From: Syntrophomonadaceae bacterium | Lineage (GTDB): Bacteria; Bacillota; Dethiobacteria; DTU022; PWGO01 | Assembly: GCA_003550565.1 (NCBI GenBank) | Contig: PUKQ01000096.1 | Coordinates: 1 to 53,490 of the forward strand | Direction: 5' to 3' | DNA: 53,490 bases | Part shown: positions 2,399 through 29,946 of the stretch, piece after piece | Layout: each line of letters starts with the position of its first letter | Position numbering within the stretch: the first letter of the stretch is position 1 | Notes under the pieces: model-generated | Seen by the model: only the letters and a program-made list of their open reading frames with translations | What the model was told of the DNA's origin: nothing | Databases searched by the model: none | Translations under genes and position numbers: made by a program

Positions 2399-2876
2399 AA
2401 AACTAAAAAAACCCGAAATAGATATGGAAAGGCTTACGCACATAGTGAACAGTTATAAGTATCAAAAATGGTCTTTAATCCCTTTGGTACAGGACATTCA
2501 AGCTGAATTCGGCTTTATTCCCCCTGAATCCATACCCATTATTGCCGATGCTTTAAACCTATTTCCCAGTGAGGTGCAGGGAGTAGTTTCTTTTTACGCA
2601 CAGTTGTATACAGAGCCAAGGGGTAGAAACATAGTTCGTGTTTGCCGGGGAACGGCTTGTCATGTTCGTGGGGGCAAAACAGTGCTAAAACTGGTAAAAA
2701 AACAGCTGGGATTACAAGAAAACCAAACTTCTGAAGACCTGGAATATACTTTAGAAACAGTAGCATGCCTTGGAGTTTGTGCTCTTTCCCCCAGCATGGT
2801 TATAAATAACCAGGTATATGGAAATATGAACCCCAAAAAATTAAAGCTCTTATTTAAGGGGGAGGAGGATAGTTGA
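2391..2876 (+). CDS. NuoE/HydC-type thioredoxin-like [2Fe-2S] subunit
   Basis: 161 aa. VCRGTACHVRG ... CLGVCALSP gives the four-Cys pattern of NuoE/HndA. It overlaps the upstream gene by 8 nt, which suggests translational coupling. Confidence 0.85.
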   Translation: MSEKLKKPEIDMERLTHIVNSYKYQKWSLIPLVQDIQAEFGFIPPESIPIIADALNLFPSEVQGVVSFYAQLYTEPRGRNIVRVCRGTACHVRGGKTVLKLVKKQLGLQENQTSEDLEYTLETVACLGVCALSPSMVINNQVYGNMNPKKLKLLFKGEEDS

Positions 2877-5800
2877 TTATGCAAAAACGCACTGTATTTG
2901 TTTGCCAGGGAACCGGATGCTTTTCCAGTGGCTCTCAGGCTCTCTATGATCATTTACTTACGGAAGTAAAACGCTTGCAAATTCAGGATGCTGAAGTAGA
3001 TTTTACCGGATGCCATGGATTTTGTGAACAAGGGCCCATTGTCATCGTAGAACCGGAAGGAATATTTTACACTCGCGTTCAATCTGAGGACGCTTCCGAA
3101 ATAGCATTATCTCACCTGCAAAAAAACATACCGGTAGAGCGGCTCTACTATCGAGATCCTTTGAGTGGAGAGGCGATACCTTATTATAAAGATGTTAATT
3201 TTTATCAAAAACAACAGCGAGTAATTTTGGAAAACTGCGGGCATATAAACCCTGAAAATATTGAACATTCAATAACAAAAGGAAAATACCGGGGATTGGA
3301 AAGGGCCCTGCTAAATTTATCTCCCCAACAGGTCATCGAGGAAATAAAAGCATCGGGACTACGTGGCCGCGGGGGAGCCGGCTTTCCCACAGCGCGCAAA
3401 TGGGAATTTTGTTTTAACGCTCCCGGACCCAAAAAATATGTGATCTGTAATGCCGATGAAGGCGATCCCGGAGCTTTTATGGATCGTTCCATCCTGGAAG
3501 CCGATCCTCATGCGGTAGTAGAAGGTTTAACTATCGCCGGCTATGCTGTTGGTGCTGATGAAGGATATATTTATGTGCGCGCCGAGTATCCTCTGGCAGT
3601 GAAAAGACTGCGAATGGCCATTAAAGAAGCCTTAGATAAAGGTTTTTTGGGTAAAAATATTATGGATTCCGGTTTTAATTTTACCCTGAATATTAAAGAA
3701 GGTGCCGGTTCTTTTGTGTGCGGTGAAGAAACAGCCCTTATAGCTTCTATCGAAAGCCGTCGGGGAATGCCCAAGCCTCGTCCTCCTTTTCCTGCTCAAT
3801 CCGGGCTGGATGGAAAGCCAACGGTTATAAACAATGTTAAAAGTCTGGCAGCTGTTTCAGCCATTATGCGGCGTGGAGCAGATTGGTTTGCTTCTATAGG
3901 CACTGAAAAAAGCCGGGGAACAGTAGTTTTTGCCTTAACTGGAAAAGTAGCCAATAGTGGACTGGTGGAAGTAGAAGCAGGTACACCACTATCTTCCATC
4001 ATTTTCGATATAGGCGGTGGTATTCCTCGGGGCAAAAACTTTAAAGCTGTCCAAACCGGCGGTCCTTCGGGAGGATGTATCCCGGCACCTTACATGGATA
4101 CCCCGGTAGAATTTGAAAATCTGGCTCGCCTGGGATCCATCATGGGATCAGGGGGCATGGTGGTTTTGGATGAAAGCACTTGCATGGTAGAAATTGCCAG
4201 GTATTTTCTCAGCTTCACTCAATCGGAATCTTGTGGGAAGTGCACCCCTTGCCGCTTGGGCACCAGGCAAATGTTGGAGATATTAACCCGCATTACCCAG
4301 GGTTTGGGTCGAGACGGAGATATCGAGGCTCTCTACAATATTGCGAAAACAGTGAAGGAAGGCTCTTTATGTGGATTAGGACAAACTTGCCCTAATCCGG
4401 TTTTAACAACACTTGATTATTTTCGTAAAGAATATGAAATGCACATAAGAGAGAAAAAATGCCAGGCTGCGGTCTGCGATGCGCTTATGATTTCTCCCTG
4501 TCAACACACCTGCCCCGTGGGGGTAGATGTGCCTCGCTATGTGGAAGCTATTTCACGGGGGGCATATCTGGAATCGTTAGAGATAATCAGAGAACGTAAT
4601 CCTTTTCCCGCTATTTGCGGACGAATTTGCCATCATCCATGTGAAATGAGGTGCCGTCGTGGTGAACTGGATGATTCCCTGGCTATCAGGGCGTTAAAAC
4701 GTTTTGCCGGCGACTGGTATTTTGATAATATTCAAGAACTTCCTCCACCCGAACCTTTTGAGCGCCTTTATTCGCAAAATATTGCCGTGGTTGGGGCAGG
4801 CCCCTGCGGGCTTTCTTGCGCATATTTTTTAGCCCAGCTGGGATACGGAGTTACCATTTTCGAAGCTTTGCCTGTAGGCGGAGGAATGCTTTCTGTGGCT
4901 ATTCCTGAGTTTCGGCTACCCGAAAAAGTTCTTGAGGAAGAAATTAATTATATCCAAAATTGTGGGGTAGAAATTAAGTATAACACCCCGATTAACGTTA
5001 ATTTTACCATTGAAGATCTTAAGCAAATTGGTTATGATGCTGTATTTATTGCCGCCGGAGCTCAAAAAAGCCAGCAAATAGGAATACCCGGTGAAATTGA
5101 AGATTTGGAAGGATTTTATTATGGTTTACGTTTCCTGCGGGATGTAAAGATAGGCAAGACGGTATCTATTGGCAAAAAAGTGATAGTTATCGGCGGAGGT
5201 AATGTTGCTTTGGATACTGCCCGCACGGCTGTTCGCATGGGAGCAGAGCAGGTTGAAATATTTTATCGCCGCACCGAGGAACAAATGCCGGTTTCGGAAT
5301 TTGAGTACAAAGAAGCTTTAGATGAAGGAGTGAACGTGAATTTTCTGGTGAGTCCTACGCGCGTTGTAAGCGGTAATTGGAAGGTAACGGGAATAGAGTG
5401 TATTAAAATGAAACTGGGTGAGCCCGGCAGCGATGGAAGGCGTCGACCGGTACCGGTATCGGGAACTGAATTTTTTGCCGCAGCAGATACCGTATTTGCT
5501 TCCGTGGGACAGGCCCCTGATCTTTCATTTTTGCCAATTGATAGCGCCCTGGAGCGCTCTAGAATGGAAACCCTGGTGGTAGATGAAAATAGTCTTTCTA
5601 CAAATGTGCCGGGTGTATTTGCCGGAGGCGACTTTGTTACCGGCCCTGATATGGTAGTTGAGGCCATTGCGGCGGGAAGAAGAGGGGCGTTGGCTATAGA
5701 TAAGTATTTTAGAAAAGATCCTTCGCGGGTTTTAATGTATGATCTTCCTCTAAGTATGGGTATGGGAAAGGAGGAAGATGAGGAAGAAGGCTCTGAAGGC

Positions 5801-5971
5801 CTTGAAGAGGAATTGGAGGAAGAAACCTGGCAACCACAATTTCGACCCGAAACACCTCAACTTTCCGTCTTAATTAGGAAAAAGAGTTTTCAAGAAACAG
5901 AATTATGTTTTTCAGAAGAAGAAGCGGTTCAGGAATCGAAACGGTGCCTCAGGTGTGATCTGGAAAGATAA
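2873..5971 (+). CDS. Fusion flavoprotein: Trx-like [2Fe-2S] domain, NuoF/HydB NADH-FMN-FeS core and GltD/NfnB-type FeS-FAD-NAD(P)H oxidoreductase
   Basis: N-terminus: VFVCQGTGC...GCHGFCEQGP. NuoF motifs: GLRGRGGAGFPT and ESCGKCTPCR. GltD/NfnB-type region: CQHTCPVGVDVPRY...ICGRICHHPCEMRCRRG. Two Rossmann motifs: VVGAGPCGLSCAYFLA and VIVIGGGNVALDTA. There is an acidic E/D-rich tail and a terminal CLRCD. ATG at 2879 after GGAGGAGGA is the more likely start than TTG at 2873. Confidence 0.85.
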   Translation: MIMQKRTVFVCQGTGCFSSGSQALYDHLLTEVKRLQIQDAEVDFTGCHGFCEQGPIVIVEPEGIFYTRVQSEDASEIALSHLQKNIPVERLYYRDPLSGEAIPYYKDVNFYQKQQRVILENCGHINPENIEHSITKGKYRGLERALLNLSPQQVIEEIKASGLRGRGGAGFPTARKWEFCFNAPGPKKYVICNADEGDPGAFMDRSILEADPHAVVEGLTIAGYAVGADEGYIYVRAEYPLAVKRLRMAIKEALDKGFLGKNIMDSGFNFTLNIKEGAGSFVCGEETALIASIESRRGMPKPRPPFPAQSGLDGKPTVINNVKSLAAVSAIMRRGADWFASIGTEKSRGTVVFALTGKVANSGLVEVEAGTPLSSIIFDIGGGIPRGKNFKAVQTGGPSGGCIPAPYMDTPVEFENLARLGSIMGSGGMVVLDESTCMVEIARYFLSFTQSESCGKCTPCRLGTRQMLEILTRITQGLGRDGDIEALYNIAKTVKEGSLCGLGQTCPNPVLTTLDYFRKEYEMHIREKKCQAAVCDALMISPCQHTCPVGVDVPRYVEAISRGAYLESLEIIRERNPFPAICGRICHHPCEMRCRRGELDDSLAIRALKRFAGDWYFDNIQELPPPEPFERLYSQNIAVVGAGPCGLSCAYFLAQLGYGVTIFEALPVGGGMLSVAIPEFRLPEKVLEEEINYIQNCGVEIKYNTPINVNFTIEDLKQIGYDAVFIAAGAQKSQQIGIPGEIEDLEGFYYGLRFLRDVKIGKTVSIGKKVIVIGGGNVALDTARTAVRMGAEQVEIFYRRTEEQMPVSEFEYKEALDEGVNVNFLVSPTRVVSGNWKVTGIECIKMKLGEPGSDGRRRPVPVSGTEFFAAADTVFASVGQAPDLSFLPIDSALERSRMETLVVDENSLSTNVPGVFAGGDFVTGPDMVVEAIAAGRRGALAIDKYFRKDPSRVLMYDLPLSMGMGKEEDEEEGSEGLEEELEEETWQPQFRPETPQLSVLIRKKSFQETELCFSEEEAVQESKRCLRCDLER

Positions 5972-5980
5972 AAAGGAGGG

Positions 5981-6655
5981 ATGATCTTGAAATCTATAAC
6001 CAGGCTAAAACCTTATGCAGAAATTATGCAACAGCTGGAAGATTGCAACCGAGTTTTTATAGTGGGGTGCGGTACTTGTGCTACGGTGGTTCAAACAGGG
6101 GGGGTAGAGCAGGTAGAAGCTATGAAAGAGCAACTGCAGGACTCAGGGATGCTGGTAACCGGCTGGACGGTTATACCCACTGCCTGTGACGAGATGACTT
6201 CTGCTTCAACTGCTGAACATGAATCAGCCATCCAAAGCGCAAATGGAATATTGGTTATGGCTTGTGCTCTGGGGGTGCAGAGGCTAAATCTTTATACAGG
6301 CAAACGAGTCTTACCCGCTCTTGATACTTTGTTTATGGGGTTGGAAGAAAGTCCCGGCTATTTTGTGGAAGCTTGCGACCAGTGTGGAGAGTGCATTCTT
6401 GGCTATACGGCAGGGATATGCCCGGTAACTGCCTGTCACAAGGGTTTACTTAACGGCCCGTGTGGTGGTACCAACAAGGGTAAATGTGAAGTGGATCAAG
6501 AAAAAGATTGTGCTTTTACTCTTATATATCAGAAGTTAAGAGACCTGGGCCGGCCGGATTTAATGAAGCATTATCACCCCCCTAAAAATGCGCAGGCATG
6601 TCCTAGGCCAAAAGTTAAGATTCTGGAAGCAAAGGAGACAGAACAATGGATTTAA
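5981..6655 (+). CDS. metV: MetV, the Cys-rich small subunit associated with acetogen-type methylene-THF reductase
   Basis: 224 aa. Cys-rich motifs VGCGTCATV, CDQCGECILGYTAGICPVTACHKGLLNGPCGG and KCEVD. It sits immediately upstream of metF and overlaps it. RBS AAAAGGAGGG lies just before the ATG. Confidence 0.8.
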   Translation: MILKSITRLKPYAEIMQQLEDCNRVFIVGCGTCATVVQTGGVEQVEAMKEQLQDSGMLVTGWTVIPTACDEMTSASTAEHESAIQSANGILVMACALGVQRLNLYTGKRVLPALDTLFMGLEESPGYFVEACDQCGECILGYTAGICPVTACHKGLLNGPCGGTNKGKCEVDQEKDCAFTLIYQKLRDLGRPDLMKHYHPPKNAQACPRPKVKILEAKETEQWI

Positions 6656-7536
6656 AATTTAAAAGTTTACTTGATTCCGGAAAGTTTGTAGTGACTGCAG
6701 AAGTGGCACCGCCTAAAGGAATTGAGCTTGAACAGATGAACCATCACATTGAGCTTCTTAAAGGCAAAGTAGATGCTTTAAATGTAACCGATCACCAAAG
6801 TTCAGTTATGCGTTTCCCTTCCCTGGGAGGCTGCCTTGCCATTAAGGAAGGAGGCGGTGAAGCCATTTTGCAAATGACCTGCCGTGATCGCAACCAGATA
6901 GCCCTGCAGTCTGATCTCCTGTTTGCATACTCCCGGGGTATAAGAAATGTCCTTTGCCTTACCGGGGATGCTATGCCGGTGGGAGATCACCCTCAAGCCC
7001 GCGGTGTATTTGAAATGGACTCTGTTCAATTATTGCATTGTATAAACAGGTTGGAAGAAGGTTATGATATGGGAGGCAATGAATTAAAGGGAGAAGTTTC
7101 TTTTTGTAAGGGAGCAATAGTCACTCCGGAAGCAGATCCTTTAGAGCCTCAATTGAGCAAATTTGAAAAGAAAGTTGAAGCGGGTGTGGAATTTATTCAG
7201 ACCCAGGCTATCTATGATCTGGATAACTTTGCTGCTTTTATGGAGCATGCCCGACAATTTTCTGTAAAGATAATTGCCGGAATTGTTTTACTTACTTCTG
7301 CGAAAATGGCCAGATATATGAACAACAACGTTCCCGGCATTTTCGTGCCCCAGCATCTGATTGATGAACTGGCCGATGCTCCCAAAGGAACTGCTCTGCA
7401 GAAAGGAATTGAAATTGCGGGCCGCATGATTGCCACTTTACATAATGATGCCCTCTGTGATGGAGTCCATATCATGGCTATTAATAAGGAAGAAGTTGTC
7501 CCGGATATTTTGGAGGCTGCGGGTCTTCAGTCATAA
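6646..7536 (+). CDS. metF: 5,10-methylenetetrahydrofolate reductase (MetF)
   Basis: 296 aa. It matches the MTHFR family pattern: VTAEVAPPKG, ALNVTD, LQMTCRDRN, VLCLTGD and FIQTQAIYD. It overlaps the metV stop by 10 nt. Confidence 0.9.
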   Translation: MDLKFKSLLDSGKFVVTAEVAPPKGIELEQMNHHIELLKGKVDALNVTDHQSSVMRFPSLGGCLAIKEGGGEAILQMTCRDRNQIALQSDLLFAYSRGIRNVLCLTGDAMPVGDHPQARGVFEMDSVQLLHCINRLEEGYDMGGNELKGEVSFCKGAIVTPEADPLEPQLSKFEKKVEAGVEFIQTQAIYDLDNFAAFMEHARQFSVKIIAGIVLLTSAKMARYMNNNVPGIFVPQHLIDELADAPKGTALQKGIEIAGRMIATLHNDALCDGVHIMAINKEEVVPDILEAAGLQS

Positions 7537-7551
7537 TAATATTAACCTTTT

Positions 7552-8805
7552 TTAAGGCATATTTTTATCAACATAAACGGCTAATTTTCCTAGAAAGTTA
7601 ACATAACTACCAAGTTCATTGTCATACCAACCGAAAATTTTAGCGTGGGTAACCGGAATATTAATGTCCTCTTGTATTTCGATGCCGTGTTCGCGAAGGG
7701 TTTTAGCATAAAAGGGTATGAAACCGGTTCTGGTATGTGTTTCTGCTCCTTCAATAATAATTGCAGCAGGATAACCAATCATGTCGGATGAAACGTTCTT
7801 TTTTTCACTGTAGACAAGCATTTCTTTTTGGGGGCCTTCAGCGGCTTTTTTATAAATATTGTTAATAAAATTTTTGCTTAAAAGAGGTTCGCCATCTTCG
7901 CTTAGGGTAGTGTTAAACGTAACGTTGAGGACAATGAGAGAAGCTGTACTAATGGGAACTCTAACTGAATCTGCCATGATGCCGATCTGCTTTATTTCCG
8001 GTAAAATATTTTCCAGAGCAAACCCTGCGCCGGTAGTGGTCATGATTATGTTGTTAAATACAGAACGAGTTTTTCTCAAATCAGAAGCATCTGCTTTAGG
8101 TGCTGAATCTAATATATTTTGATTATTTGTAGCTGCATGGACAGTAGACATTGAAATAGTAATAATTTCTGATGTTTCGCGGGTATCCAGCAGCGGGCTG
8201 ACCATGTGGGCCAAACCGGTAGTTGTACAGCTGGCGGCAGAAATAATATGGTGTTCATCAGGTTCGTATTCATGATGATTGATTCCATATACAAAAGTGC
8301 CGCAATCAGGTGGAATGTCTTGGATGTTATCGGACGCTTTAAAGGGAGCGCTAACAATAACTTTTTCGGCCCCGGCTTCAAGGTGACCGCGCATGCCGCC
8401 TTTGGGGTGATCTGCAGGAGCAGTGGGATCAACAAAATTTCCCGTGCACTCCACAACCAACCGCACATCTTCCCTAGCCCAGTTAATATTTTTTGGATTT
8501 CTAGAATCCGCAATAAGTTTAATCGGTAATCCGTTAATAGTAAAAATAGATGACTCCCGATCAACAATTTCGATATCGCAGGTATTGCCCGAATATCCGT
8601 AAAAGAAATTATCCAGAGATCCAAAAGTAGAATCTTTTACCAGGTAGTCAATAAAGTCTTCCAATTTTTTGCCCACTTTTCTGCCGGCATTAATAACAAA
8701 ACCATCAAAGTGCCCATAGTTTAAATGGTTCCACAGGGTGAGTTTCCCAATCCGCCCGATACCATTGATGCCTATTTTTTTAGTGCTTTTTAGGAGATTA
8801 CTCAA
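7552..8805 (-). CDS. Long-form glyceraldehyde-3-phosphate dehydrogenase family protein
   Basis: 417 aa. IGINGIGRIGK is the NAD-binding N-terminus. SAASCTTTGLAH matches the canonical SCTTNCLAP catalytic Cys. TVHAATNNQNILD contains the catalytic His. DLRKTRS and VRVPISTASL are Pi-site-like. It has a TTG start and is the last gene of the minus-strand pair with the 1360-aa protein. Confidence 0.8.
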   Translation of the reverse strand: MSNLLKSTKKIGINGIGRIGKLTLWNHLNYGHFDGFVINAGRKVGKKLEDFIDYLVKDSTFGSLDNFFYGYSGNTCDIEIVDRESSIFTINGLPIKLIADSRNPKNINWAREDVRLVVECTGNFVDPTAPADHPKGGMRGHLEAGAEKVIVSAPFKASDNIQDIPPDCGTFVYGINHHEYEPDEHHIISAASCTTTGLAHMVSPLLDTRETSEIITISMSTVHAATNNQNILDSAPKADASDLRKTRSVFNNIIMTTTGAGFALENILPEIKQIGIMADSVRVPISTASLIVLNVTFNTTLSEDGEPLLSKNFINNIYKKAAEGPQKEMLVYSEKKNVSSDMIGYPAAIIIEGAETHTRTGFIPFYAKTLREHGIEIQEDINIPVTHAKIFGWYDNELGSYVNFLGKLAVYVDKNMP

Positions 8806-8865
8806 TTTCCTTTTTCACCCCTATCTTTCTAAAATATATTGAATTATTGAGCAAATTTGTCTTTA

Positions 8866-11800
8866 TCAGCTTTTTGCGCTTTGGTATGAAAATGAAAGTT
8901 GATCATCCTCTGCATGTATGCTTCCCACTTGCCCATCGATATATATAGTGGCACCTGATTTAATGGTGACATTGTTAATTGTACATTCTTTATTGGTTTC
9001 GTCAACTTTAAGTTCTTTGCAATTAACAATGCATACTTTACCTAATTTCTGGGCCGATACCGCTGCGTGGGAAGTAATGCCTCCCCGGCTGGTAACCAGC
9101 CCGTCGCTTGTAAAAATCATGTGAATATCATCGGGTACCGTATCGGGTCGAATTAAAATGTGATTTTCCTCGGGATATTTATTTTTGTTTGCTTGTAGAT
9201 CTTCCATATAGAAGCTGACAATGCCTTTCATGAGGCCTCCACCAACACCAATGCCTTTACCGATCATATTTCCTCTTGCAGTGGTGTTGCTAAAGGAGGT
9301 TTCCTTTTCTTTGGGAGTAATTTCTTGTTCTCTGGTTTGAAGAAGGTACAGATCTTTTGGTTCCGGTGACTCAAAAGTAAATTCAATCTGCTGGTGGTTA
9401 AAACCGTGTGTTTCTATTAATTCGGCAGCAATTTCATACAGTCGTCGAAAGATTTTAGGAAATGCAGATTCAAGAGAAAATTCACAGTCCTGGTATTCAT
9501 TTATGCGCTGCCTTTCTGAAACAGGCATAGTATACACAAGGCCGGAGACGATATCTTCTCCCTGACTGCAAGTTGTAAAATCTCCATAGAGATGGATGCC
9601 GGGTTTATTCAATTTAGGATCATGGGTAAAAACTACACCTGTACCGGAGCTTCTTGAGCGGTTGCCCATTACCATTTTTTGGACGGTAACTGCTGTACCC
9701 CATTCATCGGCGATTTGCATATGTTTGCGATAAGCATTGGCTCTTTTAGAAGACCATGAATCAAAAACAATGGAAATAGCCTGCTTAAGTTGTTCAAAAG
9801 AATTCTCTGCAACGAAAACATTATTTTTGTTGAGTATTTTTTTATATTCTTTAGCTATTTCTTTCATTTGGGTTGCATTGAAGAAAGATTTAAGCTTAAC
9901 ATTATATCTTTTCTTATGATAAGCCATGATTTCATCAAATAAATCCCGATCAATGCCATACGCCATGCCCCAACTTTGGATAAATCGCCGGTAAGAATCC
10001 CAGCCCATCCAAGCTGTTTTGGCGTTTTTACCCAACTCTTCGGCGATAGCATCGTTCATTCCCACATTTAGCAGGGTAATCATGGCACCGGGCATTGAAA
10101 ATGCTGTGCCGGAACGAACAGACAAAAGCAAAGGGTTTTTAACACTGCCAAATTTCAATTCCTCGGTGGCCTCTAAGGCATGAACCTGGGTTAAAATTTT
10201 GTTTTCCAGGTCACGAAGCATATTTTGGTTTTTAAAAATAGTTTGCTTGTGCCTATAGACTTCTGTGGTGAGAACAAAACCGGGAGGTATGGGTAATTTG
10301 TAAGAAGACATCTTTTTAAGGTAATATGCTTTAGCACCCAGAAAGATTCGATTGTCCATAGGTAGGGTTTCTTGGGTTAAAGGGCTGATAGCCATTTCCG
10401 GCTTATAGCTGGTAGTGGTATGAATATGAACTTCCTTATTGTTTTCAATAAGGTTTTCGGTTACATTGATTAAATTAGCCAGGAAATTATCAATTTCCTG
10501 CATTAAAAAGGATGAGGACAAAATATCCCGGTAAAAAATCTCAGATACGTTCATGAGCGTTTCAGCTGAATCATCGTATATTTGGGGTATTACAATATTG
10601 AGAGCTTCATCGTAAAACCTCATAAAATATTTATTTATTGCTTCTTTGATGTGCCCGGACATGAATCTGAAAATGTTTATATATTGACCCAGTGTTACGC
10701 TGGGTGAAAAAAGGCTGTGCCAAAACATCTCTAAGGTGGAATTGAAATTTTGGTTTACTATCCCATCTAACTCAAGCCCTTTTTTGAATTGAACAAGCAG
10801 TGCATATATTCCATCAAGAGTGCGTGGCGAAAAATTTTCCAGGGGTAAGTCTTTTAATGTTCTTTCAATCAGATGAGAAGCTAATTGTTCCAGCCTGTAA
10901 ATTAGACCCAGAGCTTCGAATTTTGGTTCTCTGTATTCCCCATACATTGAAGGAATGCCTATGGCAATATGCCTTTTATAATAAATGTTTTCTACGGGTT
11001 CAGTTATATCTTCGTCCAGTATTATTTCATTTAAATCATTCATAAAAGCATACACTTGTTCCAGGGCTTGTTGATGCATGTTTTGTTCTAAAAATTCTTG
11101 CAGTTTCTTAATATCGTCTTTTTGGAAAAAATTACTGCGTGATAAAACATCAATGATGTTGTTGGCCTCGAAAGAATATTTAGCTAATAAAAGTTTATTC
11201 ATATGAATAAGATATATTAATCGTTGTTTATCTCTTTCATTTACCGAACTCTGGTTTTGGATGAAATCTGCAACTTCATCTTCAGGTAATTTCAAAAGTC
11301 CTTCAAAGTCAACGTGGAAGTGTTTGCATACTTCATTCATAAGGAGATTTATTTCTACAAAATACTCACTTTCTACATCAATAAATTCGATAACGTCGCC
11401 GGGCAATATAGCTTTTAGTGGTTTTAAGTCACCATTGTACCAAAAGCCGGCTACTTTTTTAATAAGCTCCACATGCATATTGTTACTTTCGGCGTGGATT
11501 TGCTTTCTAACAAAATGCATGAGCCGGTCTTTTCTTCCGGATAGTTCATCTATAGCTGTGCTGTAATCGCGCAGGTCTCCTTCGGCGCCAATTTCGTTGT
11601 AATAAACCGGAAAAACTCTGGCTAATTGCTTAACTTGTTTAAATACTAGCCCGATATTTGCGTTTAGTAGTTTAGTGATATCACGCTGGAAAAGATCAGT
11701 GTCAGAGATAAAAATGCCGCCAAGTTTTAGATTAACCAGAAGAGCCGACAGAAGCTTTTTAAAATTATAAGGTGATATCCTAATTAATTCCAGCCAAATT

Positions 11801-12948
11801 CTAATATTTTTCACATGGTTTGGGTTAGCTTTGGTTACCCAGTCATCAGTTATTTCAATTTTTCCCGGGAATACAAAGCCAAACTCAATAAGGTTATCTA
11901 TGTAATGGGTAATAATTTCCTGGTCATCAATATCGGCGATTTCTTTTCCTAGTGTAAGTTGACAATCTAAAATTGTCCCGGTGTGTTGTTCTTTAAGATC
12001 AATGAAAAGGTTAAACATAATGTCAATGAAAGGATAAACATCTTTGTTGTCAAGCTCTGCCAAAACTGTTTTAAGCAATCTATTCAGATCATAGAGGAGG
12101 TGATTTTTAAGAGGAATCATCCCCGGTAAATGTAACAAATATAAAAGGTAATAAATTTTCTCTATAGAGAGTTCAAGCTCTTCTATAAAATGTCGAAAGT
12201 AGTTGGCAATTTCTTCAAAAAAGAGGTTCGATTCAATTTCTTTCCAATCTTGAGATGCCTCGATTTGTTCTGATAGATCTTTAAAAAATTTTTTACCGAG
12301 TTGCTTAATTTTTTCCTGGCTTTCGGGTAGAAATAGTTCTGATTTGCTTTCTATCCATTCTTCGATATTTGTTGTATTTTCCCAATATGCACAGCTTTTT
12401 CGCAGTACATCTTTGGTAATATCGCAAATTTTTTGATTAAACTCCGGCACTTTGGCTACTTTTCTTAGATACATTTTAAAGTGCCTTGCATTCCGCAGGT
12501 AAATATCTTCATTTTTAGCCATTCCCTGTTCAATCAAGTCCAAGCATTTCCAAATTACCCTGGGGGGGTAGTTACCTTCTTTGGCCAGTTTGTCAACAAA
12601 CTCGAAGAGTGTTCTAACCAATTGTTCCTGTAGTTTTTCTTCCAGTTCTTTGCTTTGCAATTCTTCAAAAATACTTACCAAAAAAAGCAAGGCTTCTTCC
12701 GATTCTTCCACCGAATTATAAAGCCACAATTCGTTTATGCTGATTTTATGCAAACTTTTAATAATAAAAGCGTAATCGGGGTATGCGTGGTTATATTCTT
12801 TAATAAAATTTTCTGTTTTTTTGTTTATGCCCCAGTATGAAGCAGATAAAGAAATAAACCAGCGATGCTTTTCCGGAAACTCTATCTGCTCCTGTTTTGT
12901 TTGTGTTAAGTTAGCCTCTAATGCTTTTGACTTAAAAGTGCTTTTCAT
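8866..12948 (-). CDS. PPDK/PpsA-like phosphotransfer enzyme: ATP-grasp nucleotide-binding domain plus swivelling phospho-His domain, with an ~860-aa unknown helical N-terminal region and no PEP/pyruvate TIM-barrel domain
   Basis: 1360 aa. Residues ~864-1360 align by eye to the PPDK N-terminal two thirds: FLGAKAYYLKKM, LPIPPGFVLTTEV, LLLSVRSGTAFSMPGAMITLLNVGMND, DSYRRFIQSWG, GTAVTVQKMVMGN, SGTGVVFTHDP, GEDIVSG, QQIEFTFE, LYLLQTR and TSRGGITSHAAV. The His codon is at 9067-9069. The protein ends 66 aa after that His. Confidence 0.8.
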   Translation of the reverse strand: MKSTFKSKALEANLTQTKQEQIEFPEKHRWFISLSASYWGINKKTENFIKEYNHAYPDYAFIIKSLHKISINELWLYNSVEESEEALLFLVSIFEELQSKELEEKLQEQLVRTLFEFVDKLAKEGNYPPRVIWKCLDLIEQGMAKNEDIYLRNARHFKMYLRKVAKVPEFNQKICDITKDVLRKSCAYWENTTNIEEWIESKSELFLPESQEKIKQLGKKFFKDLSEQIEASQDWKEIESNLFFEEIANYFRHFIEELELSIEKIYYLLYLLHLPGMIPLKNHLLYDLNRLLKTVLAELDNKDVYPFIDIMFNLFIDLKEQHTGTILDCQLTLGKEIADIDDQEIITHYIDNLIEFGFVFPGKIEITDDWVTKANPNHVKNIRIWLELIRISPYNFKKLLSALLVNLKLGGIFISDTDLFQRDITKLLNANIGLVFKQVKQLARVFPVYYNEIGAEGDLRDYSTAIDELSGRKDRLMHFVRKQIHAESNNMHVELIKKVAGFWYNGDLKPLKAILPGDVIEFIDVESEYFVEINLLMNEVCKHFHVDFEGLLKLPEDEVADFIQNQSSVNERDKQRLIYLIHMNKLLLAKYSFEANNIIDVLSRSNFFQKDDIKKLQEFLEQNMHQQALEQVYAFMNDLNEIILDEDITEPVENIYYKRHIAIGIPSMYGEYREPKFEALGLIYRLEQLASHLIERTLKDLPLENFSPRTLDGIYALLVQFKKGLELDGIVNQNFNSTLEMFWHSLFSPSVTLGQYINIFRFMSGHIKEAINKYFMRFYDEALNIVIPQIYDDSAETLMNVSEIFYRDILSSSFLMQEIDNFLANLINVTENLIENNKEVHIHTTTSYKPEMAISPLTQETLPMDNRIFLGAKAYYLKKMSSYKLPIPPGFVLTTEVYRHKQTIFKNQNMLRDLENKILTQVHALEATEELKFGSVKNPLLLSVRSGTAFSMPGAMITLLNVGMNDAIAEELGKNAKTAWMGWDSYRRFIQSWGMAYGIDRDLFDEIMAYHKKRYNVKLKSFFNATQMKEIAKEYKKILNKNNVFVAENSFEQLKQAISIVFDSWSSKRANAYRKHMQIADEWGTAVTVQKMVMGNRSRSSGTGVVFTHDPKLNKPGIHLYGDFTTCSQGEDIVSGLVYTMPVSERQRINEYQDCEFSLESAFPKIFRRLYEIAAELIETHGFNHQQIEFTFESPEPKDLYLLQTREQEITPKEKETSFSNTTARGNMIGKGIGVGGGLMKGIVSFYMEDLQANKNKYPEENHILIRPDTVPDDIHMIFTSDGLVTSRGGITSHAAVSAQKLGKVCIVNCKELKVDETNKECTINNVTIKSGATIYIDGQVGSIHAEDDQLSFSYQSAKS

Positions 12949-13225
12949 AAAAAATCACCCCGCTAGCTGCACGCTTTGTTGTTTGCTTGACAAGTGTATA
13001 AAATTAGGAGTTATCTTTATCAAATACATTATATCAGATAAATTATGAAAAAAATAGTTAGAAAAATAAGACAATACACTCCGGTATAATAATTTGGCAG
13101 ATAATATAATAAGCAGGATAACCGCATATTTTCCAGAATTATAATAACCAGGGGAATTCATAGAAAACCCTGGACTTTATGTTTAGGTAAAGTTGCCATT
13201 TCCTAAAAGATAGGAGTGACGGGGA

Positions 13226-14632
13226 ATGAATGCTAATGGAAAGATACTACAAGAAGGCCTTTTTAACCGGGTTTACGGACTCTTTGGAGTAATGAATAAG
13301 TTTCCGGACGTAATGAGCGAAGCTGAACTGGAAGGGTTAATTAAAGTACTTCCTCCCGATTCGGCAAACAGCATAAGATCCATCTTAAGGCCATCTATCC
13401 AGGAAGCAAGTATGGCTTATATAAAAATGCTTAATGTATGGCTTGCGGAAGCCAGGCAGGCGCGAGATGAAGGTAAAAAAGTTATCCTTCTTCCTTTTAA
13501 CTTTAACCCGGAAATTATTCATTTTTTTGATAATATATTTCCTCTTACCAGTGAAGTCCTTACCACCATGGGAGTTGTAGCCTTGGAGGGGCAAGGTCAA
13601 AGATACTGGGATTACGCTATGGGTATGGGCATGCCTGACCATATTTGTTCGGCGAATTCGGTGGAAATTGGTTCCGTACTTACAGGAGTGGATTTTAAGC
13701 CCGATGCCGTGATTTCTGCAGCGCCGGGGGCTTGTGACATGAACGCTAAAATTCACGAGTTTTTGGCCAGATACCTCGAAATTCCTCAGTTTGTAATACA
13801 AAAACCGCCGGATAATACCCGGCGGGGTTATGAATTTTTTAAAAACAGCTATAGAAATTTAATTGCTATGCTGGAAGATTATGCGGGAGAAGAAGTAAAA
13901 GAGGAAAAAATGCGGGAAGTGGCGACAAAAGCAAACCGCTGCACAGAATTGTATTACGACCTTTGGGAGTTAAAAAAGCAGGTGCCCTGTCCTGTACCGG
14001 GACTATTTTCCCTCTATATTATTGGAGTGAGGTTTGCCATGTGGGGAAGGGATGAAGGTATAACAACAATGCAAAAAATGGTGGAGGTGGCTCGCCGAAA
14101 CCTTGAAGATCCACATTGCCAAAATCGAGAAGAAGTTGCCCGGGTCCTCTGGACTTATGTAAGTTATTATTACGACTTGCTTGGTTTTTATGATTGGATG
14201 GATGAAAAGGGATTTATTAATATGGGGGACATGCTCCAGATAAATTTTACCCAACCCATAGATTTAAGCACTCGCGAAAGCATTCTTGACGGTATAGTGG
14301 AAAACGCATGGAATGCTTTTATGACCAGGCAAATGGGGGGTGATTCCATGTCACTGCGGTGGGTGAATGATCTCATTCACATTGTTAAAGAGTTTGGTGT
14401 CAACGGTGCTATCTTTTGCGGTCATCATGCTTGCAAACAAAGTCAGAGTGTTTTTTCCATTGCCCGTAAGGAACTTCAAGAAAAAACCGGAGTTCCCACC
14501 TTAAGGTTACAGGGGGATTCCTGGGTAGGCTCTATGACTCCTATGAGTGTTATTCAGGCAGAGGTAGAGCAGTTTATAAATAATGTAGTTAATAAAAAAA
14601 GAAGGCGTCGGAAAAAATCCGGAGGAGTATAA
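13226..14632 (+). CDS. 2-hydroxyacyl-CoA dehydratase / benzoyl-CoA reductase (HgdB/BcrB/BadE) family protein, solitary
   Basis: 468 aa. Family-typical N-terminal GKKVILLPFNFNPEIIHFFD and Cys-containing HICSANS, GACDMNAK and CGHHACKQS. It has a poly-basic C-terminus, KKRRRRKKSGG. No partner subunit or activase is adjacent. Confidence 0.7.
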   Translation: MNANGKILQEGLFNRVYGLFGVMNKFPDVMSEAELEGLIKVLPPDSANSIRSILRPSIQEASMAYIKMLNVWLAEARQARDEGKKVILLPFNFNPEIIHFFDNIFPLTSEVLTTMGVVALEGQGQRYWDYAMGMGMPDHICSANSVEIGSVLTGVDFKPDAVISAAPGACDMNAKIHEFLARYLEIPQFVIQKPPDNTRRGYEFFKNSYRNLIAMLEDYAGEEVKEEKMREVATKANRCTELYYDLWELKKQVPCPVPGLFSLYIIGVRFAMWGRDEGITTMQKMVEVARRNLEDPHCQNREEVARVLWTYVSYYYDLLGFYDWMDEKGFINMGDMLQINFTQPIDLSTRESILDGIVENAWNAFMTRQMGGDSMSLRWVNDLIHIVKEFGVNGAIFCGHHACKQSQSVFSIARKELQEKTGVPTLRLQGDSWVGSMTPMSVIQAEVEQFINNVVNKKRRRRKKSGGV

Positions 14633-14666: not shown

Positions 14667-15149
14667 TTATATTTTTCCCTCCAGTTTGCTAATATCGTTT
14701 TGTAATTTTTTCTTCACTTTTTCTTTATTTTTTAAGACATTTTTATAATCAAACGCCCCTTTAATATTATTGCCTGCCAATTCTTTTTCAAGATTGCGCA
14801 GTGTTTTGCCGGGCATCCCCATATGGGTGCAAAAAAGGACAATAATTTTTCCCGAAATGGAGTTTTCTTTTAGGAAACTTCTTATTGGAGGAGAGAAGTT
14901 AAAGCTCCACACGGGTGTCCCCAAAAAAATCAAATCATACTTATGGAGATCAAGATCATATTCTTTGAGCTGAGGGGATTCACGCATCATGACCTGCTTG
15001 CCGCCCCATATATGCTTGATGGGTTCAACTTTTGAAAGCTCTTTTACGGGTTTGAGTTCCTGAAAGTCTAACTCAAAATGTTCTCCTATGCACTCCGCGA
15101 TAAACCTGGTATTGCCTTCAAGTGAATAATAGACCACTATTTTATCCAT
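14667..15149 (-). CDS. Flavodoxin family protein
   Basis: 160 aa. The N-terminal KIVVYYSLEGNTRFIAE matches the flavodoxin FMN phosphate-binding loop pattern. The size fits short-chain flavodoxin-like proteins. Confidence 0.75.
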   Translation of the reverse strand: MDKIVVYYSLEGNTRFIAECIGEHFELDFQELKPVKELSKVEPIKHIWGGKQVMMRESPQLKEYDLDLHKYDLIFLGTPVWSFNFSPPIRSFLKENSISGKIIVLFCTHMGMPGKTLRNLEKELAGNNIKGAFDYKNVLKNKEKVKKKLQNDISKLEGKI

Positions 15150-17141: not shown

Positions 17142-17753
17142 ATGAAAATATTAACAATATCAAAAGGATTAATTCACCCTTCCTTTTTAGCCCGAAAGAG
17201 TTTAGAAATCTTATTGAATAGAATTAAGGGAAACTTTGATTTTACTTCAACCTCTAAATTAGGCGATTTAAAAATGTTAAAGAGGAACAATTATGATGTA
17301 GTAATCTTGTATTACCACCTGAAATCTATAAACAATGATAATTTAATGGCTCTAATTGATTTTGTAAACGAGGGTGGCGGGGTTTTGGCCTTACATTCAG
17401 CCATGGCTTCTTTAAAGGACAATGCTGAATATCAGGAATTACTGGGGGGGCGCTTTATCGGGCATGGCAAAATTGAAAGAATAGATGTTAATGCCAATGA
17501 TAATACTCACCCCATTTCTTCAGATATTTTTAATTTTGCAGTTAAAGATGAGTTGTATTTACATGAATATGATGAAAATAATGAGATAATTTTTTATGCC
17601 CAGAGTAATGACAAAGATGAACCCGTCATGTGGACAAAAAAATATGGACGAGGTAGGGTGTGTTATCTGTCTTTGGGGCATTGTTTTCAAATTTGGCAAC
17701 ATCCGGAAGTTAAGAAAATTGTCCGGAACAGTCTTATATGGCTAAAGGAATAG
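17142..17753 (+). CDS. ThuA-like (trehalose-utilisation / class-I amidotransferase-like) domain protein
   Basis: 203 aa. FVNEGGGVLALHSA...LLGGRFIGHG resembles the ThuA domain core. RBS GAGGAGGA lies 6 nt upstream. A Gfo/Idh/MocA oxidoreductase follows, as in thuAB-type pairs. Confidence 0.65.
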   Translation: MKILTISKGLIHPSFLARKSLEILLNRIKGNFDFTSTSKLGDLKMLKRNNYDVVILYYHLKSINNDNLMALIDFVNEGGGVLALHSAMASLKDNAEYQELLGGRFIGHGKIERIDVNANDNTHPISSDIFNFAVKDELYLHEYDENNEIIFYAQSNDKDEPVMWTKKYGRGRVCYLSLGHCFQIWQHPEVKKIVRNSLIWLKE

Positions 17754-17763
17754 GAGGAAGAAA

Positions 17764-18804
17764 ATGCGAAAACTACGTTTAGGCATTATCGGTTGTGGGG
17801 AAATAACCAGGTTTATGAGCGTTTTTGCCAAATTGAATAATAATATTCAAGTTGTAGGTTTTTATGCGCGCAATATTGAAAAAGCCCACCGCTATGCCTC
17901 CTATTTTAGAGATGCTTCTGCTTATGATGATTACGTTAAAATGGCTTCCAATTTACAAATGGATGCGGTATATATAGCGCTTCCCCATCATCTTCATTAC
18001 CCGGTAATGCAGGAATATGTTTCCAGAGGAATTCATGTCCTGTGCGAAAAACCGGCAGCACGCCACTTCACAGAAGCGAATGAGACCTTGAATTTAGCCC
18101 GGGAGCGCAAAGTTAAAATTGGTGTTAACTATCAATACCGCTATGATAAAGCTTGTTACCGAATGGCTAAAGCAGCTCAGAATGGGGACCTTGGGAAATT
18201 GCATTATGGAATATGCAATATACCCTGGTCCCGGAGCAACGAATATTTTCGGAAGAGCCAATGGCATGCCCAATGGGAAAAATCAGGTGGTGGCACCCTT
18301 ATTACCCATGGTTCTCACGGTCTTGATTTGTTGTTGTGGTCGTTTGGCAAAAAACCTGTTCATGCGGCAGGTTTTAGCTCCCAGCAGAAATTTCTCCATA
18401 CTGAAGTAGAAGATCTATGCATGGGAATTTTAGAACTTGAAAATGGTTCCCTTCTTCAGGTTACCAGTTCCATGGTAGCGATGCCGGAACAGCCTGCCAT
18501 GGTGAAAATTTACGGGTCAAAAGGGACTGCCATATGCACTTTCCGGGAACTCTTTTCCAGCGTGAATTTTATTAAAACTTCCGTGCCGAATTATACTCCC
18601 GAAGTCCGGGGTGTTCATGCCATGGGAAGAAGTTTGGAAGCTTTTAGGCAATGGGTAGTCAAAGATAAACCATATTATTGTTCCCTGGAGGATGTTCTGG
18701 ATGTGTTGGCATCAATAGAAGCTATTTATGAAAGTAGCCGGAGTCAGGCCAAAATTGAAGTTAAAAAAGGAAATTTTGAAAACTACGGGAGAAAAATATT
18801 GTGA
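17764..18804 (+). CDS. Gfo/Idh/MocA family NAD(P)-dependent oxidoreductase
   Basis: 346 aa. LRLGIIGCGEI is the Rossmann start, and HVLCEKP is the family EKP motif. The size is typical. Confidence 0.85.
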   Translation: MRKLRLGIIGCGEITRFMSVFAKLNNNIQVVGFYARNIEKAHRYASYFRDASAYDDYVKMASNLQMDAVYIALPHHLHYPVMQEYVSRGIHVLCEKPAARHFTEANETLNLARERKVKIGVNYQYRYDKACYRMAKAAQNGDLGKLHYGICNIPWSRSNEYFRKSQWHAQWEKSGGGTLITHGSHGLDLLLWSFGKKPVHAAGFSSQQKFLHTEVEDLCMGILELENGSLLQVTSSMVAMPEQPAMVKIYGSKGTAICTFRELFSSVNFIKTSVPNYTPEVRGVHAMGRSLEAFRQWVVKDKPYYCSLEDVLDVLASIEAIYESSRSQAKIEVKKGNFENYGRKIL

Positions 18805-19799
18805 GTACCATTAAAGATGTGGCTGAAAAAGCAGGAGTTTCCATCAGTACTGTATCACGGACTTTGACTAGCAGTGCACCGGTGATGGAAGAGACTCGCC
18901 AGAAAGTTTTGGAGGCGGTAGCAGAGCTTAACTATCAACCTAACACTGTTGCCCGAGGACTAAAAGTGGGTCGCTCCAAAACTTTGGGTTTAATCATTCC
19001 AAATTATCAAAGCCTGGTGTTTCCTGATGCCATTAAGGGAATTACCGATGCATTAGATGATTTTGGCTACAACCTGGTTTTGGGAGATACTTATGATAAT
19101 CTTGAACGCGAAGAACAATTGATTGAAGGTCTGCGCATGCGTATGGTAGACGGGTTGATTTGTTCTACTGCTACGAGAACTAGCACGCATCTTTTGCAAT
19201 TAAAAGAAGAAGGTTTTCCTGTGGTTTTACTTTTGAGGCATTTAAATGAAGATATTGATGCCGTAATAGCGGATAATTACCAGGGTGGTTTTGTAGGAGG
19301 CAATTATTTATTAAATAAAGGTTTTACAAGGATTGGGTTTATCAATGGTTCCCTGGAATTAGACTTATACAGGCAGCGTTATAGTGGTTTTCAAAATGCG
19401 CTTTCCGCTAAAGGTGTAGAGAAAGATCAAAGGCTGATGGCGCATGGTCACAAAGGTTGGCAAGGAGGTTATTATGCCATGTTGAAATTATTAAATCAAA
19501 AACCTTTTCCGGAAGCGGTTTTTGCCACCAGTGACCCCAAGGCTTTTGGCGCGATTAAGGCTATTCATGAATCCGGCATGCAGATTCCGCAGGATATTTC
19601 TGTGGTGGGCTATGACAACCTGGAATTTTCGCAATTAATCAATCCTCCTTTAACCACTATTGGCCAGCCTTTTTATGACATGGGTAGAATGGCTGCCCAG
19701 AAGATATTGGAATTAATCAACCGGGATAACCGGAAGGAAGCAATAGTAGATAAATTTCCGGTGGAACTAATTGAGCGTGGGTCAGTGAGAGAAAAATGA
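18801..19799 (+). CDS. LacI family transcriptional regulator
   Basis: 332 aa. The N-terminal HTH is TIKDVAEKAGVSISTVSRTL...YQPNTVARGLK. A periplasmic-binding-protein-like sugar-binding core follows. It overlaps the upstream gene by 4 nt. Confidence 0.9.
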   Translation: MSTIKDVAEKAGVSISTVSRTLTSSAPVMEETRQKVLEAVAELNYQPNTVARGLKVGRSKTLGLIIPNYQSLVFPDAIKGITDALDDFGYNLVLGDTYDNLEREEQLIEGLRMRMVDGLICSTATRTSTHLLQLKEEGFPVVLLLRHLNEDIDAVIADNYQGGFVGGNYLLNKGFTRIGFINGSLELDLYRQRYSGFQNALSAKGVEKDQRLMAHGHKGWQGGYYAMLKLLNQKPFPEAVFATSDPKAFGAIKAIHESGMQIPQDISVVGYDNLEFSQLINPPLTTIGQPFYDMGRMAAQKILELINRDNRKEAIVDKFPVELIERGSVREK

Positions 19800-19867
19800 G
19801 TTGAGCCTAATATTATTTTGTAAGGACAATAAATTACAAGGATACTATTAAGGAGGGGTGATAGAGT

Positions 19868-20962: not shown

Positions 20963-21050
20963 AACAGAAAGTTTTTCCGGATAATAGATTAATTCGCAGG
21001 AGTATTAGGATTTCTAATCCTTAAATATGACGGAGAAAAGGAGGATTAAC

Positions 21051-22904: not shown

Positions 22905-22995
22905 GCGAAAATGATTAACACTGTTATTTTTAAATTTATAGAAAAGCTTTTTGGGATGGGATAATATGGAGAGGGGAAAAAGGGGGCGCCTTTAG

Positions 22996-24162: not shown

Positions 24163-24190
24163 TGGGGAAAAGGAGGTTTAAGCTTTTGCC

Positions 24191-24838: not shown

Positions 24839-24863
24839 TATTTTTAGGAAAGGAGGTTTTATA

Positions 24864-25886: not shown

Positions 25887-25930
25887 TTTAATTTACTCAA
25901 AGATAGAGGGTTCTTGAGGAGGTAAATATT

Positions 25931-27391: not shown

Positions 27392-27404
27392 TTTAATAGA
27401 AAGG

Positions 27405-29906: not shown

Positions 29907-29946
29907 GAATAGAGATTGGTATGGGAGGTAAAAAAGGGGAAATGAG

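Follow-up and report, generated by a model that had tools for sequence, protein, structure and literature searches.

A PPDK-type dikinase with a large helical N-terminal domain is encoded beside a long-form GAPDH in anaerobic bacteria of many phyla

The closest characterised systems to the protein described here are pyruvate, phosphate dikinase (PPDK, EC 2.7.9.1), VadK of Mycobacterium tuberculosis, the dikinases acting on rifampicin, phenol and hydroxyphenylethanone, and the glucan water dikinase. The protein has 1360 residues and is encoded, directly upstream of a member of the glyceraldehyde-3-phosphate dehydrogenase (GAPDH) family, on contig PUKQ01000096.1 of a Syntrophomonadaceae bacterium (assembly GCA_003550565.1), of which the stretch of 53,490 nucleotides analysed by us is called the window. 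With PPDK (structure 1KBL) it shares homologous ATP-grasp and swivelling phospho-histidine domains, which retain the presumed catalytic residues as well as the GGxTSH motif. In contrast to PPDK it is devoid of the TIM barrel which binds phosphoenolpyruvate (PEP) and pyruvate, and it carries an all-helical N-terminal domain of ∼855 residues. The protein is a new architectural variant of the phospho-histidine dikinases, combining a domain without detectable relative with a new and very tightly linked partner. As reasoned below, the two genes very probably constitute an ancient, self-contained functional module. Lower glycolysis and gluconeogenesis are regarded as almost invariant across life; the adjacency of this dikinase and a GAPDH suggests that central sugar metabolism has a step, or a point of control, which is as yet uncharacterised.

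A PPDK core lacking the barrel has a precedent. VadK (Rv1127c) is a truncated PPDK which acts as a regulatory histidine kinase and autophosphorylates on histidine (PMC13400623; bioRxiv 10.1101/2025.10.30.685616). Its binding partners PrpC and PrpD are enzymes of the methylcitrate cycle whose locus tags are close to its own, and it modulates the flux through them (PMC13400623). Both VadK and the dikinase of the window are encoded close to metabolic enzymes which they appear to serve. However, VadK comprises only about 490 residues and has no extra domain, whereas the dikinase described here adds a conserved domain of 855 residues, is found in anaerobes of many phyla and has a GAPDH as its partner. 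Rifampicin phosphotransferase and the dikinases of the HpeHI/phenylphosphate synthase type follow a like logic with an ATP-grasp domain, a swivelling histidine and a separate acceptor domain that is not a barrel (PMC4844700, PMC12167813), but their domain order and acceptor domain are unrelated to those of our protein. A literature search found no description of this dikinase family or of the pairing of a dikinase with a GAPDH. Two GAPDH isoenzymes have been compared to the GapA and GapB types of Corynebacterium in a paper on Geobacter metallireducens, in which the pairing with a dikinase is unmentioned.

Domain architecture of the two proteins

The initial annotation, made from the nucleotide sequence alone, had placed a PPDK-type ATP-grasp region and a GGITSHAAV phospho-histidine motif in an open reading frame of 1360 codons (for coordinates see Table 1). 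Translation, Pfam and a check of the codons bear this out: the catalytic His1294 is encoded at 9067–9069 and the protein ends 66 residues later. As the annotation had predicted, PPDK_N (PF01326) is present with 102.6 bits (cutoff 27) in two stretches within residues 903–1138 and PEP-utilizers (PF00391) with 59.2 bits at residues 1260–1341, while PEP-utilizers_C (PF02896) has no Pfam match in the 1360 residues. The dikinase half aligns to residues 15–340 and 386–510 of the PPDK of Clostridium symbiosum (1KBL) with an E-value of about 1e-70, and the alignment stops just short of the start of the barrel.

In an alignment of 79 full-length sequences from seven phyla His1294 and the motif G-G-x-T-S-H-A-A-V are invariant, as are K873, R945, E1189, Q1204, and R1206, which we take to be the equivalents of the PPDK residues K22, R92, E323, Q335, and R337 with their nucleotide-site or catalytic roles. 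Given this invariance of the presumed nucleotide-site residues and of GGxTSH, the dikinase half-reaction is very likely intact. The sequence strongly implies an active dikinase of the PPDK type, which would bind ATP in the ATP-grasp domain and become phosphorylated at His1294.

The protein scores well under the cutoff of every named NCBIfam family. The best match is the PPDK model TIGR01828 with 372.3 bits (equivalog cutoff 843.45), followed by NF004531 with 303.6 bits (cutoff 456), a pyruvate, phosphate dikinase model of 534 residues which we assume to represent the truncated Rv1127c/VadK type and whose cutoff thus sets the protein apart from VadK as well. The PEP synthase models TIGR01418 and NF005057 reach 80.8 and 91.3 bits (cutoffs 739.75 and 598), and the rifampicin phosphotransferase model NF041857 only 24.9 bits (cutoff 999). 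Because these scores place the dikinase half much nearer to PPDK than to PEP synthase, inorganic phosphate (Pi) and pyrophosphate (PPi) may take part in the reaction.

The N-terminal region of ∼860 residues, described in the initial annotation as helical and without a motif that could be placed, keeps this character in all searches. An AlphaFold2 model of residues 1–855 computed with 40 homologues (predicted local distance difference test, pLDDT, 85.8; predicted template modelling score, pTM, 0.77) is all-helical save for one β-hairpin at residues 652–673, and the conserved core 330–855, modelled separately, is likewise all-α (pLDDT 84.6, pTM 0.82). Residues 1–855 have no significant match in Pfam, NCBIfam or among the PDB sequences, and a profile built from members at 24–62% identity retrieved from the PDB sequences only designed helical repeats. 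Among the Foldseek matches listed against the PDB, the whole domain resembles α-solenoids alone (karyopherins, CAND1, FANCI) with template modelling (TM) scores of at most 0.2, and the best E-value for the core is 0.03; no structure of rifampicin phosphotransferase appears among the 50 matches listed for either model. Solenoids at such scores, a core match of this E-value and designed repeats permit no fold assignment. The domain is a new fold-level family without detectable relative in Pfam or in the solved structures of the PDB.

The most conserved stretch of the whole protein lies in this domain and not in the ATP-grasp or histidine domains. It comprises residues 401–495 (GGIFISDTDLFQRD ... 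EIGAEGxLR ... RKQxHxESNN) with a mean column conservation of 0.81 over the 79 sequences, and residues 641–680 and 721–760 come next. Invariant down to 24–26% identity are H378, D416, Q421, R460, D467, R481, K482, H485, K590, and Y591, and in addition K658, R659, H660, S667, Y672, E674, R807, and D820. Among the conserved loops the segments 453–455 and 658–666 are modelled with low confidence (pLDDT below 50 at 658–666) and are probably mobile. An invariant cluster of basic, histidine and acidic residues on mobile loops would be expected of a site for a polyanionic ligand and a metal, and less of a pure docking surface.

We also searched the N-terminal domain alone with HMMER, exhaustively, against 1.84 billion representative proteins and obtained 461 clusters. 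Among the matches, those with at least about 1.2 kb of protein measure mostly 1335–1540 residues, and most of the shorter ones look like fragments. Seven of the proteins, 865–1540 residues long, were checked: six carry PPDK_N, five of these also PEP-utilizers, in each case C-terminal to the match of the N-terminal domain. Other architectures were not found, and as the dikinase half is present in six of the seven checked proteins the domain appears to exist only as part of the dikinase.

The partner, a protein of 417 residues, matches Gp_dh_N with 50.5 bits and Gp_dh_C with 84.8 bits in Pfam. It had been annotated as a GAPDH-family gene following after 60 nt on the same strand with the catalytic cysteine and histidine retained, and this holds: Cys193 in SCTT is encoded at 8227–8229 and His223 in TVHAAT at 8137–8139 (both codons checked), and the two motifs align to the solved GAPDHs and are invariant in the family of long GAPDH-like proteins to which the protein belongs. 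The WYDNE motif is kept in this family as well, and the residues aligning with T179, R195, T208/G209, and R231 of GAPDH, presumably the positions of the glyceraldehyde-3-phosphate and phosphate anion sites, are invariant or nearly so. Because the catalytic residues, the anion-site residues and WYDNE are kept, the protein most likely handles glyceraldehyde-3-phosphate and 1,3-bisphosphoglycerate or a very close analogue.

Thus the long form shares with type I GAPDH the fold and the residues just named, but it differs in several respects. It scores 293.1 bits against TIGR01534, below the equivalog cutoff of 367.2. Six insertions, among them an invariant segment HTRTGF...PVTHAKIFGWYDNE, make it ∼80 residues longer than an ordinary type I GAPDH, and it is almost always found beside the giant dikinase. 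In addition, the aspartate at the end of strand β2, which determines the preference for NAD, is not conserved: the consensus is N-x-G-R, with alanine in the window, as opposed to N-D in ordinary GAPDHs. According to the D32G engineering of the Bacillus stearothermophilus GAPDH this aspartate reportedly excludes NADP; the mutant entries of that work, 1dbv–4dbv, are among the solved GAPDHs in our alignment search. Since NADP exclusion is attributed to an aspartate which the long form does not conserve, the long form probably accepts NADP(H), as far as this can be read from the sequence. An NADP-dependent, gluconeogenic form of type I GAPDH exists in Bacillus subtilis as GapB. Some members of the long family are named by NCBI sources only as "GAPDH NAD-binding domain-containing protein".

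Distribution and linkage of the two genes

The dikinase family consists of proteins of about 1350–1370 residues, which the sources name "PEP/pyruvate-binding domain-containing protein", "hypothetical" or "ppdk2". Relatives were detected in at least 582 species in a scan of one genome per species. For the analysis of gene linkage we used 80 loci whose dikinases, at 43–65% identity, are full-length or cut by contig ends alone. These loci stem from Bacillota (Syntrophomonadaceae, Oscillospiraceae, Peptococcaceae, Acetobacterium), from Lentimicrobium and other anaerobic Bacteroidota, from Geobacter, Desulfobacteraceae (Desulfobacterota) and strain NaphS2, and from Cloacimonadota, Ignavibacteria, Calditrichales, and Sumerlaeota, so that the module is spread over at least seven phyla of anaerobic bacteria. 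A cultured and completely sequenced carrier is Petroclostridium sp. (CP124862.1, with the gene pair at 1.814–1.819 Mb). Among the family members, one with 53% identity bears the label Caulobacteraceae and one from Calditrichales is closer than many from Bacillota; this suggests horizontal spread or mis-binning.

In 72 of the 78 informative loci a GAPDH-family gene adjoins the dikinase. The long form lies directly 3′ of the dikinase on the same strand in 62 of them, with gaps of −32 to +252 nt and one outlier of 714 nt, and several of the stop and start codons overlap. In the ten further loci only a GAPDH of ordinary length is adjacent, twice upstream in the same direction and nearly abutting, and eight times divergent. 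Six loci (L044, L045, L051, L066, L073, L076) have the order short GAPDH, dikinase, long GAPDH. The short GAPDH of these three-gene loci keeps the N-D motif and overlaps the start of the dikinase by 4–8 nt in five of the six, with a gap of 21 nt in L045. Short GAPDH neighbours score 354–431 bits against TIGR01534 (cutoff 367).

In the opposite direction, with the long GAPDH-like protein as the starting point, 72 loci of the long type were obtained from metagenome contigs. The dikinase adjoins in 53 of them, 15 are uninformative as they reach contig ends, and four are clear negatives; thus, about 53 of 57 informative loci have an adjacent dikinase. The conserved gene pairing without which the initial annotation would have given up its proposal is therefore found in both search directions. 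In a divergent clade (L126, L130, L131, L133, L135–L138, L140–L142, L158) the two genes are arranged tail to tail and are still adjacent, and three of five very divergent members which were looked up (24–26% identity in the N-terminal domain) retain the pairing. Because the linkage survives divergence, horizontal spread across phyla and inversion, we consider it strong evidence for a two-gene module. The two proteins themselves are members of families that are large and strongly conserved, so that chance can be excluded for the observation of these reading frames.

The module does not seem to extend further. Only the dikinase and the GAPDH family are common to more than six of the 80 loci; the next commonest neighbour family occurs in six, and a third conserved gene was accordingly rejected. 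Otherwise the pair is flanked by housekeeping genes without relation to it, for example, lepA, hisS, and dnaN. No gene for phosphoglycerate kinase (pgk) was found in the 85 loci tested (L001–L085) nor in the window, even beside a canonical gap, and the aldolase gene fbaA is near the dikinase in one locus among these 85. No residues separate dikinases with an adjacent long GAPDH from those without.

Possible functions of the gene pair

Pairs of a kinase and a dehydrogenase are well known, for example, Pgk-Gap, Ask-Asd, ArgB-ArgC, and ProB-ProA, in which a carboxylate is phosphorylated and the acyl-phosphate is then reduced by a cysteine-dependent dehydrogenase. The same logic is proposed here. 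However, the kinases of these pairs have other folds and simply convert ATP to ADP, whereas a phospho-histidine dikinase would convert ATP to AMP. The initial annotation had proposed such a phosphorylation–reduction system acting on an unknown carboxylate or hydroxyl substrate. Its architecture and its pairing are borne out, and the proposal can be refined: the simplest carboxylate is 3-phosphoglycerate rather than an unknown acid, since the anion-site residues of the GAPDH are kept and ordinary-length GAPDHs are the neighbours in some lineages. Thus, we tentatively suggest, as a possibility with less than even confidence, that the dikinase serves its dedicated GAPDH by converting 3-phosphoglycerate to 1,3-bisphosphoglycerate and back. 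The absence of pgk near the loci and the ordinary-length GAPDH neighbours are consistent with such a 3-phosphoglycerate dikinase.

The reaction could proceed as follows. The ATP-grasp domain would bind ATP, and His1294, which the swivel domain carries, would become phosphorylated. The histidine domain would then swing not to a PEP/pyruvate barrel but to a second site in the helical domain of ∼855 residues, where the conserved block rich in arginine, lysine, histidine and aspartate (401–495, 641–680) may bind a polyanionic acceptor and Mg2+. If the acceptor is 3-phosphoglycerate, the phospho-histidine would hand its phosphate to the carboxylate bound in this domain, and the overall reaction, 3-phosphoglycerate + ATP (+ Pi) <-> 1,3-bisphosphoglycerate + AMP (+ PPi), would offer an alternative to phosphoglycerate kinase that is of the dikinase type. 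The labile acyl-phosphate would be made or consumed by the dedicated long GAPDH, possibly within a complex, and the reverse direction is possible too.

The energetics of such a reaction can be estimated. The textbook standard free energies of hydrolysis are about −49 kJ/mol for 1,3-bisphosphoglycerate, about −46 for ATP to AMP and PPi, and about −31 for ATP to ADP. From these values the reaction 3-phosphoglycerate + ATP + Pi -> 1,3-bisphosphoglycerate + AMP + PPi comes to about +4 kJ/mol and the phosphoglycerate kinase reaction, on the same basis, to about +19 kJ/mol, which makes the dikinase reaction ∼15 kJ/mol more favourable in the gluconeogenic direction. Being near equilibrium, it might be pulled by pyrophosphatase in gluconeogenesis or conserve the energy of PPi in glycolysis, and would therefore suit the energy-limited anaerobes which carry the module. 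Taken one step further, a 3-phosphoglycerate dikinase (ATP/AMP, Pi/PPi) with its acceptor site in the new domain and with its own NADP-type GAPDH might form a bypass of phosphoglycerate kinase that shifts the energetics of these organisms; this extended proposal we regard as somewhat doubtful.

Several observations weigh against these proposals. A helical domain of 855 residues is very large for a three-carbon acid, and its faint fold resemblance in the models is to α-solenoids alone, which typically bind proteins. The carrier genomes probably keep phosphoglycerate kinase, so that a bypass would not obviously be needed. The assignment of NADP(H) to the long GAPDH has a single sequence motif as its basis. 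Finally, in six loci which extend far enough on either side of the dikinase GAPDH is absent within 8 kb (L026, L027, L063, L054, L056, L059), and two of the divergent members, one of them fused to hemerythrin, are without a neighbouring GAPDH. L026, L027, and L063 come from Acetobacterium and a relative; in Acetobacterium the neighbours are an amino-acid ATP-binding cassette transporter and a helix-turn-helix regulator. The hemerythrin-fused variant (L081, 1166–5788, P0181) has 1540 residues with the hemerythrin domain at the N-terminus and no GAPDH gene nearby, and hints at sensing of O2, iron or redox state in part of the dikinase family.

The main rival, which we regard as rather unlikely, is a regulatory or protein-directed kinase. 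The N-terminal domain would dock the GAPDH-like protein, or GAPDH generally, and the kinase would phosphorylate it or tune its activity according to the state of ATP, AMP, and PPi, by analogy to VadK or to Enzyme I of the phosphotransferase system, which passes its phosphate to HPr. Translational coupling of the two genes fits a complex, the six insertions of the long GAPDH including the invariant HTRTGF could be docking or acceptor sites, and one dikinase variant carries the hemerythrin sensor domain. The α-solenoids, as the sole fold matches among those listed for the N-terminal domain, point in the same direction, as does NF004531, of VadK type by our assumption, as the second-best NCBIfam match. 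VadK itself provides the precedent: a PPDK without barrel which autophosphorylates on histidine and co-immunoprecipitates with PrpC and PrpD, whose locus tags are nearby (PMC13400623). By this analogy a macromolecular target, which the initial annotation had offered as its alternative, gains a precedent (PMC13400623). On the contrary, the invariant cluster of charged and histidine residues in the N-terminal domain is seen more typically in a catalytic site, or in one for a small ligand, than on a docking surface, and the same residues are invariant in dikinases which have only an ordinary-length GAPDH as neighbour or none. Furthermore, most of the characterised members of the superfamily have small molecules or glucans as their phosphate acceptors (PMC4844700, PMC12167813).

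It is unlikely, in our view, that the pair acts on a different substrate off the glycolytic trunk, in which case the dikinase would activate another phosphorylated or anionic carboxylate or a hydroxyl group and the GAPDH-like enzyme would reduce or oxidise the product. The superfamily is versatile enough, with rifampicin, phenols, and glucans as acceptors (PMC4844700, PMC12167813, PMC13553574), and erythrose-4-phosphate dehydrogenase shows that the GAPDH fold accepts other sugar phosphates. The altered cofactor pocket, the six insertions and the score of the long family below the type I equivalog cutoff (293 vs 367 bits) would fit as well. However, no further pathway gene is conserved beside the pair, the neighbours being housekeeping genes, and the residues aligning with the anion sites for the C3-phosphate and Pi are kept. 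In addition, in several lineages the neighbour is a GAPDH of ordinary length, with scores around the type I cutoff as given above.

Replacement of the barrel by a non-homologous domain, such that the helical domain serves the formation of PEP from pyruvate or the reverse reaction and the gene lies beside GAPDH since both are gluconeogenic, appears quite improbable. The dikinase half is indeed closest to PPDK, members are annotated as PPDK or ppdk2 by the sources, and a GAPDH of the NADP type would fit a gluconeogenic operon. Yet no known PEP/pyruvate-binding motif or fold was found with Pfam or Foldseek, and an adjacency kept through inversion and down to 25% identity, with overlapping stop and start codons, argues for consecutive steps or a complex. 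A circularly permuted PPDK with a hidden divergent TIM barrel, which the initial annotation had named as the case that would overturn its reading and for which nothing but the length of the N-terminal region speaks, is effectively refuted within the limits of structure prediction by the confidently all-α model with its single hairpin and by the lack of any barrel, PEP-utilizers_C or PPDK match of this region in sequence, profile or fold, and so is chance adjacency by the pairing across seven phyla, which holds in 72 of 78 informative loci when counted from the dikinase and in about 53 of 57 when counted from the long GAPDH.

Whichever reading applies, a large, strongly conserved and apparently catalytic protein is genetically tied to GAPDH in syntrophs, relatives of Geobacter and of sulfate reducers, acetogens, Cloacimonadota, and anaerobic Bacteroidota. 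If the bypass of phosphoglycerate kinase is true, a new enzyme and an AMP/PPi-linked energetic option would be added to a trunk pathway, and models of metabolism in anaerobic digesters and sediments would have to be revised. If instead the dikinase is a regulatory kinase like VadK, a very recently recognised kind of metabolic control would extend from the mycobacteria to many phyla. In either case the domain of ∼855 residues offers well-defined invariant residues for mutation, and with Petroclostridium sp. as a cultured and sequenced carrier the question is directly testable.

Features and surroundings of the gene pair in the window

Table 1. Positions of the two genes, their domains and the adjoining regions in the window.
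Feature	Position	Strand	Description	Basis
Dikinase gene	8866..12948	(-)	1360 aa, ATG start	ORF (open reading frame) list, translation, Pfam, NCBIfam, full-length homologues at 43–94% identity
N-terminal domain, residues 1–855	10384..12948	(-)	Proposed acceptor-substrate or partner-binding domain	AlphaFold2, Foldseek, profile searches
Most conserved block, residues 401–495	11464..11748	(-)	Candidate active or binding site	Column conservation
β-hairpin and loop, residues 641–680	10909..11028	(-)	Conserved (ENIYYKRHIAxGIPSMYGxYxEPKF)	Alignment, AlphaFold2
PPDK-type nucleotide-binding (ATP-grasp) domain, residues ∼862–1212	9313..10365	(-)		TIGR01828 positions 14–339, 1KBL residues 15–340
Swivelling phospho-histidine domain, residues ∼1225–1348	8905..9276	(-)		PEP-utilizers match, PPDK residues 386–510
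Spacer between dikinase and GAPDH-like genes	8806..8865	(-)	60 nt	Sequence, terminator scan
Long-form GAPDH-family dehydrogenase gene	7552..8805	(-)	417 aa, TTG start	Gp_dh_N, Gp_dh_C, TIGR01534, solved-GAPDH alignment
Intergenic region 5′ of the dikinase, common to a divergent HGD-D-family gene	12949..13225	(-)	Presumed promoter region	

A Shine-Dalgarno-like GGGGTG precedes the start codon of the GAPDH-like gene, and a terminator scan of the spacer between the two genes gave no terminator-like site. In the presumed promoter region a single weak promoter-like match is present at 13135–13106, the scan giving fewer matches than in shuffled sequence. An Rfam scan around the operon, this region included, detected no riboswitch and no other element. 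A Rex-type operator 5′ of the operon was seen in 4 of 76 loci as compared to 2 of 225 background windows and is not a general feature.

The window is ordinary chromosomal DNA from an anaerobe resembling Bacillota, without a match to the PADLOC defence-system models. It also contains one gene cluster for formate dehydrogenase/MetFV and one for the catabolism of hexuronates. The former (17–7536, (+) strand) encodes a molybdopterin formate-dehydrogenase-like protein, a NuoE-like 2Fe-2S protein, a 1032-residue fusion of NuoF and a GltD-like part, MetV, and MetF. It looks like an electron-transfer module of a Wood-Ljungdahl-type formate dehydrogenase and methylene-tetrahydrofolate reductase, and only 15 nt separate its end from the stop codon of the GAPDH-like gene, which runs towards it. 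Three genes belong to the HGD-D family (2-hydroxyacyl-CoA dehydratase/double-cubane reductase-like), namely 13226–14632 (+), 34280–35584 (−), and 35584–36693 (−); no activator gene was recognised among the scanned neighbouring open reading frames. A flavodoxin gene is located at 14667–15149 (−).

The hexuronate and sugar-acid cluster (17142–31389) comprises genes for ThuA, Gfo/Idh/MocA, LacI, 2-keto-3-deoxy-6-phosphogluconate (KDPG) aldolase, PfkB kinase, MFS_2, and UxaC. Within it lies an open reading frame of 833 codons (27405–29906, (+) strand) that has no Pfam match at E <= 1e-8. The G+C content of the region with the dikinase and GAPDH genes (8001–14000) is 0.37–0.40 as compared to 0.43–0.47 in the flanking 4–8 kb and 18–26 kb, and the GC skew is about zero at 8–10 kb, consistent with the reversed strand of the two genes.

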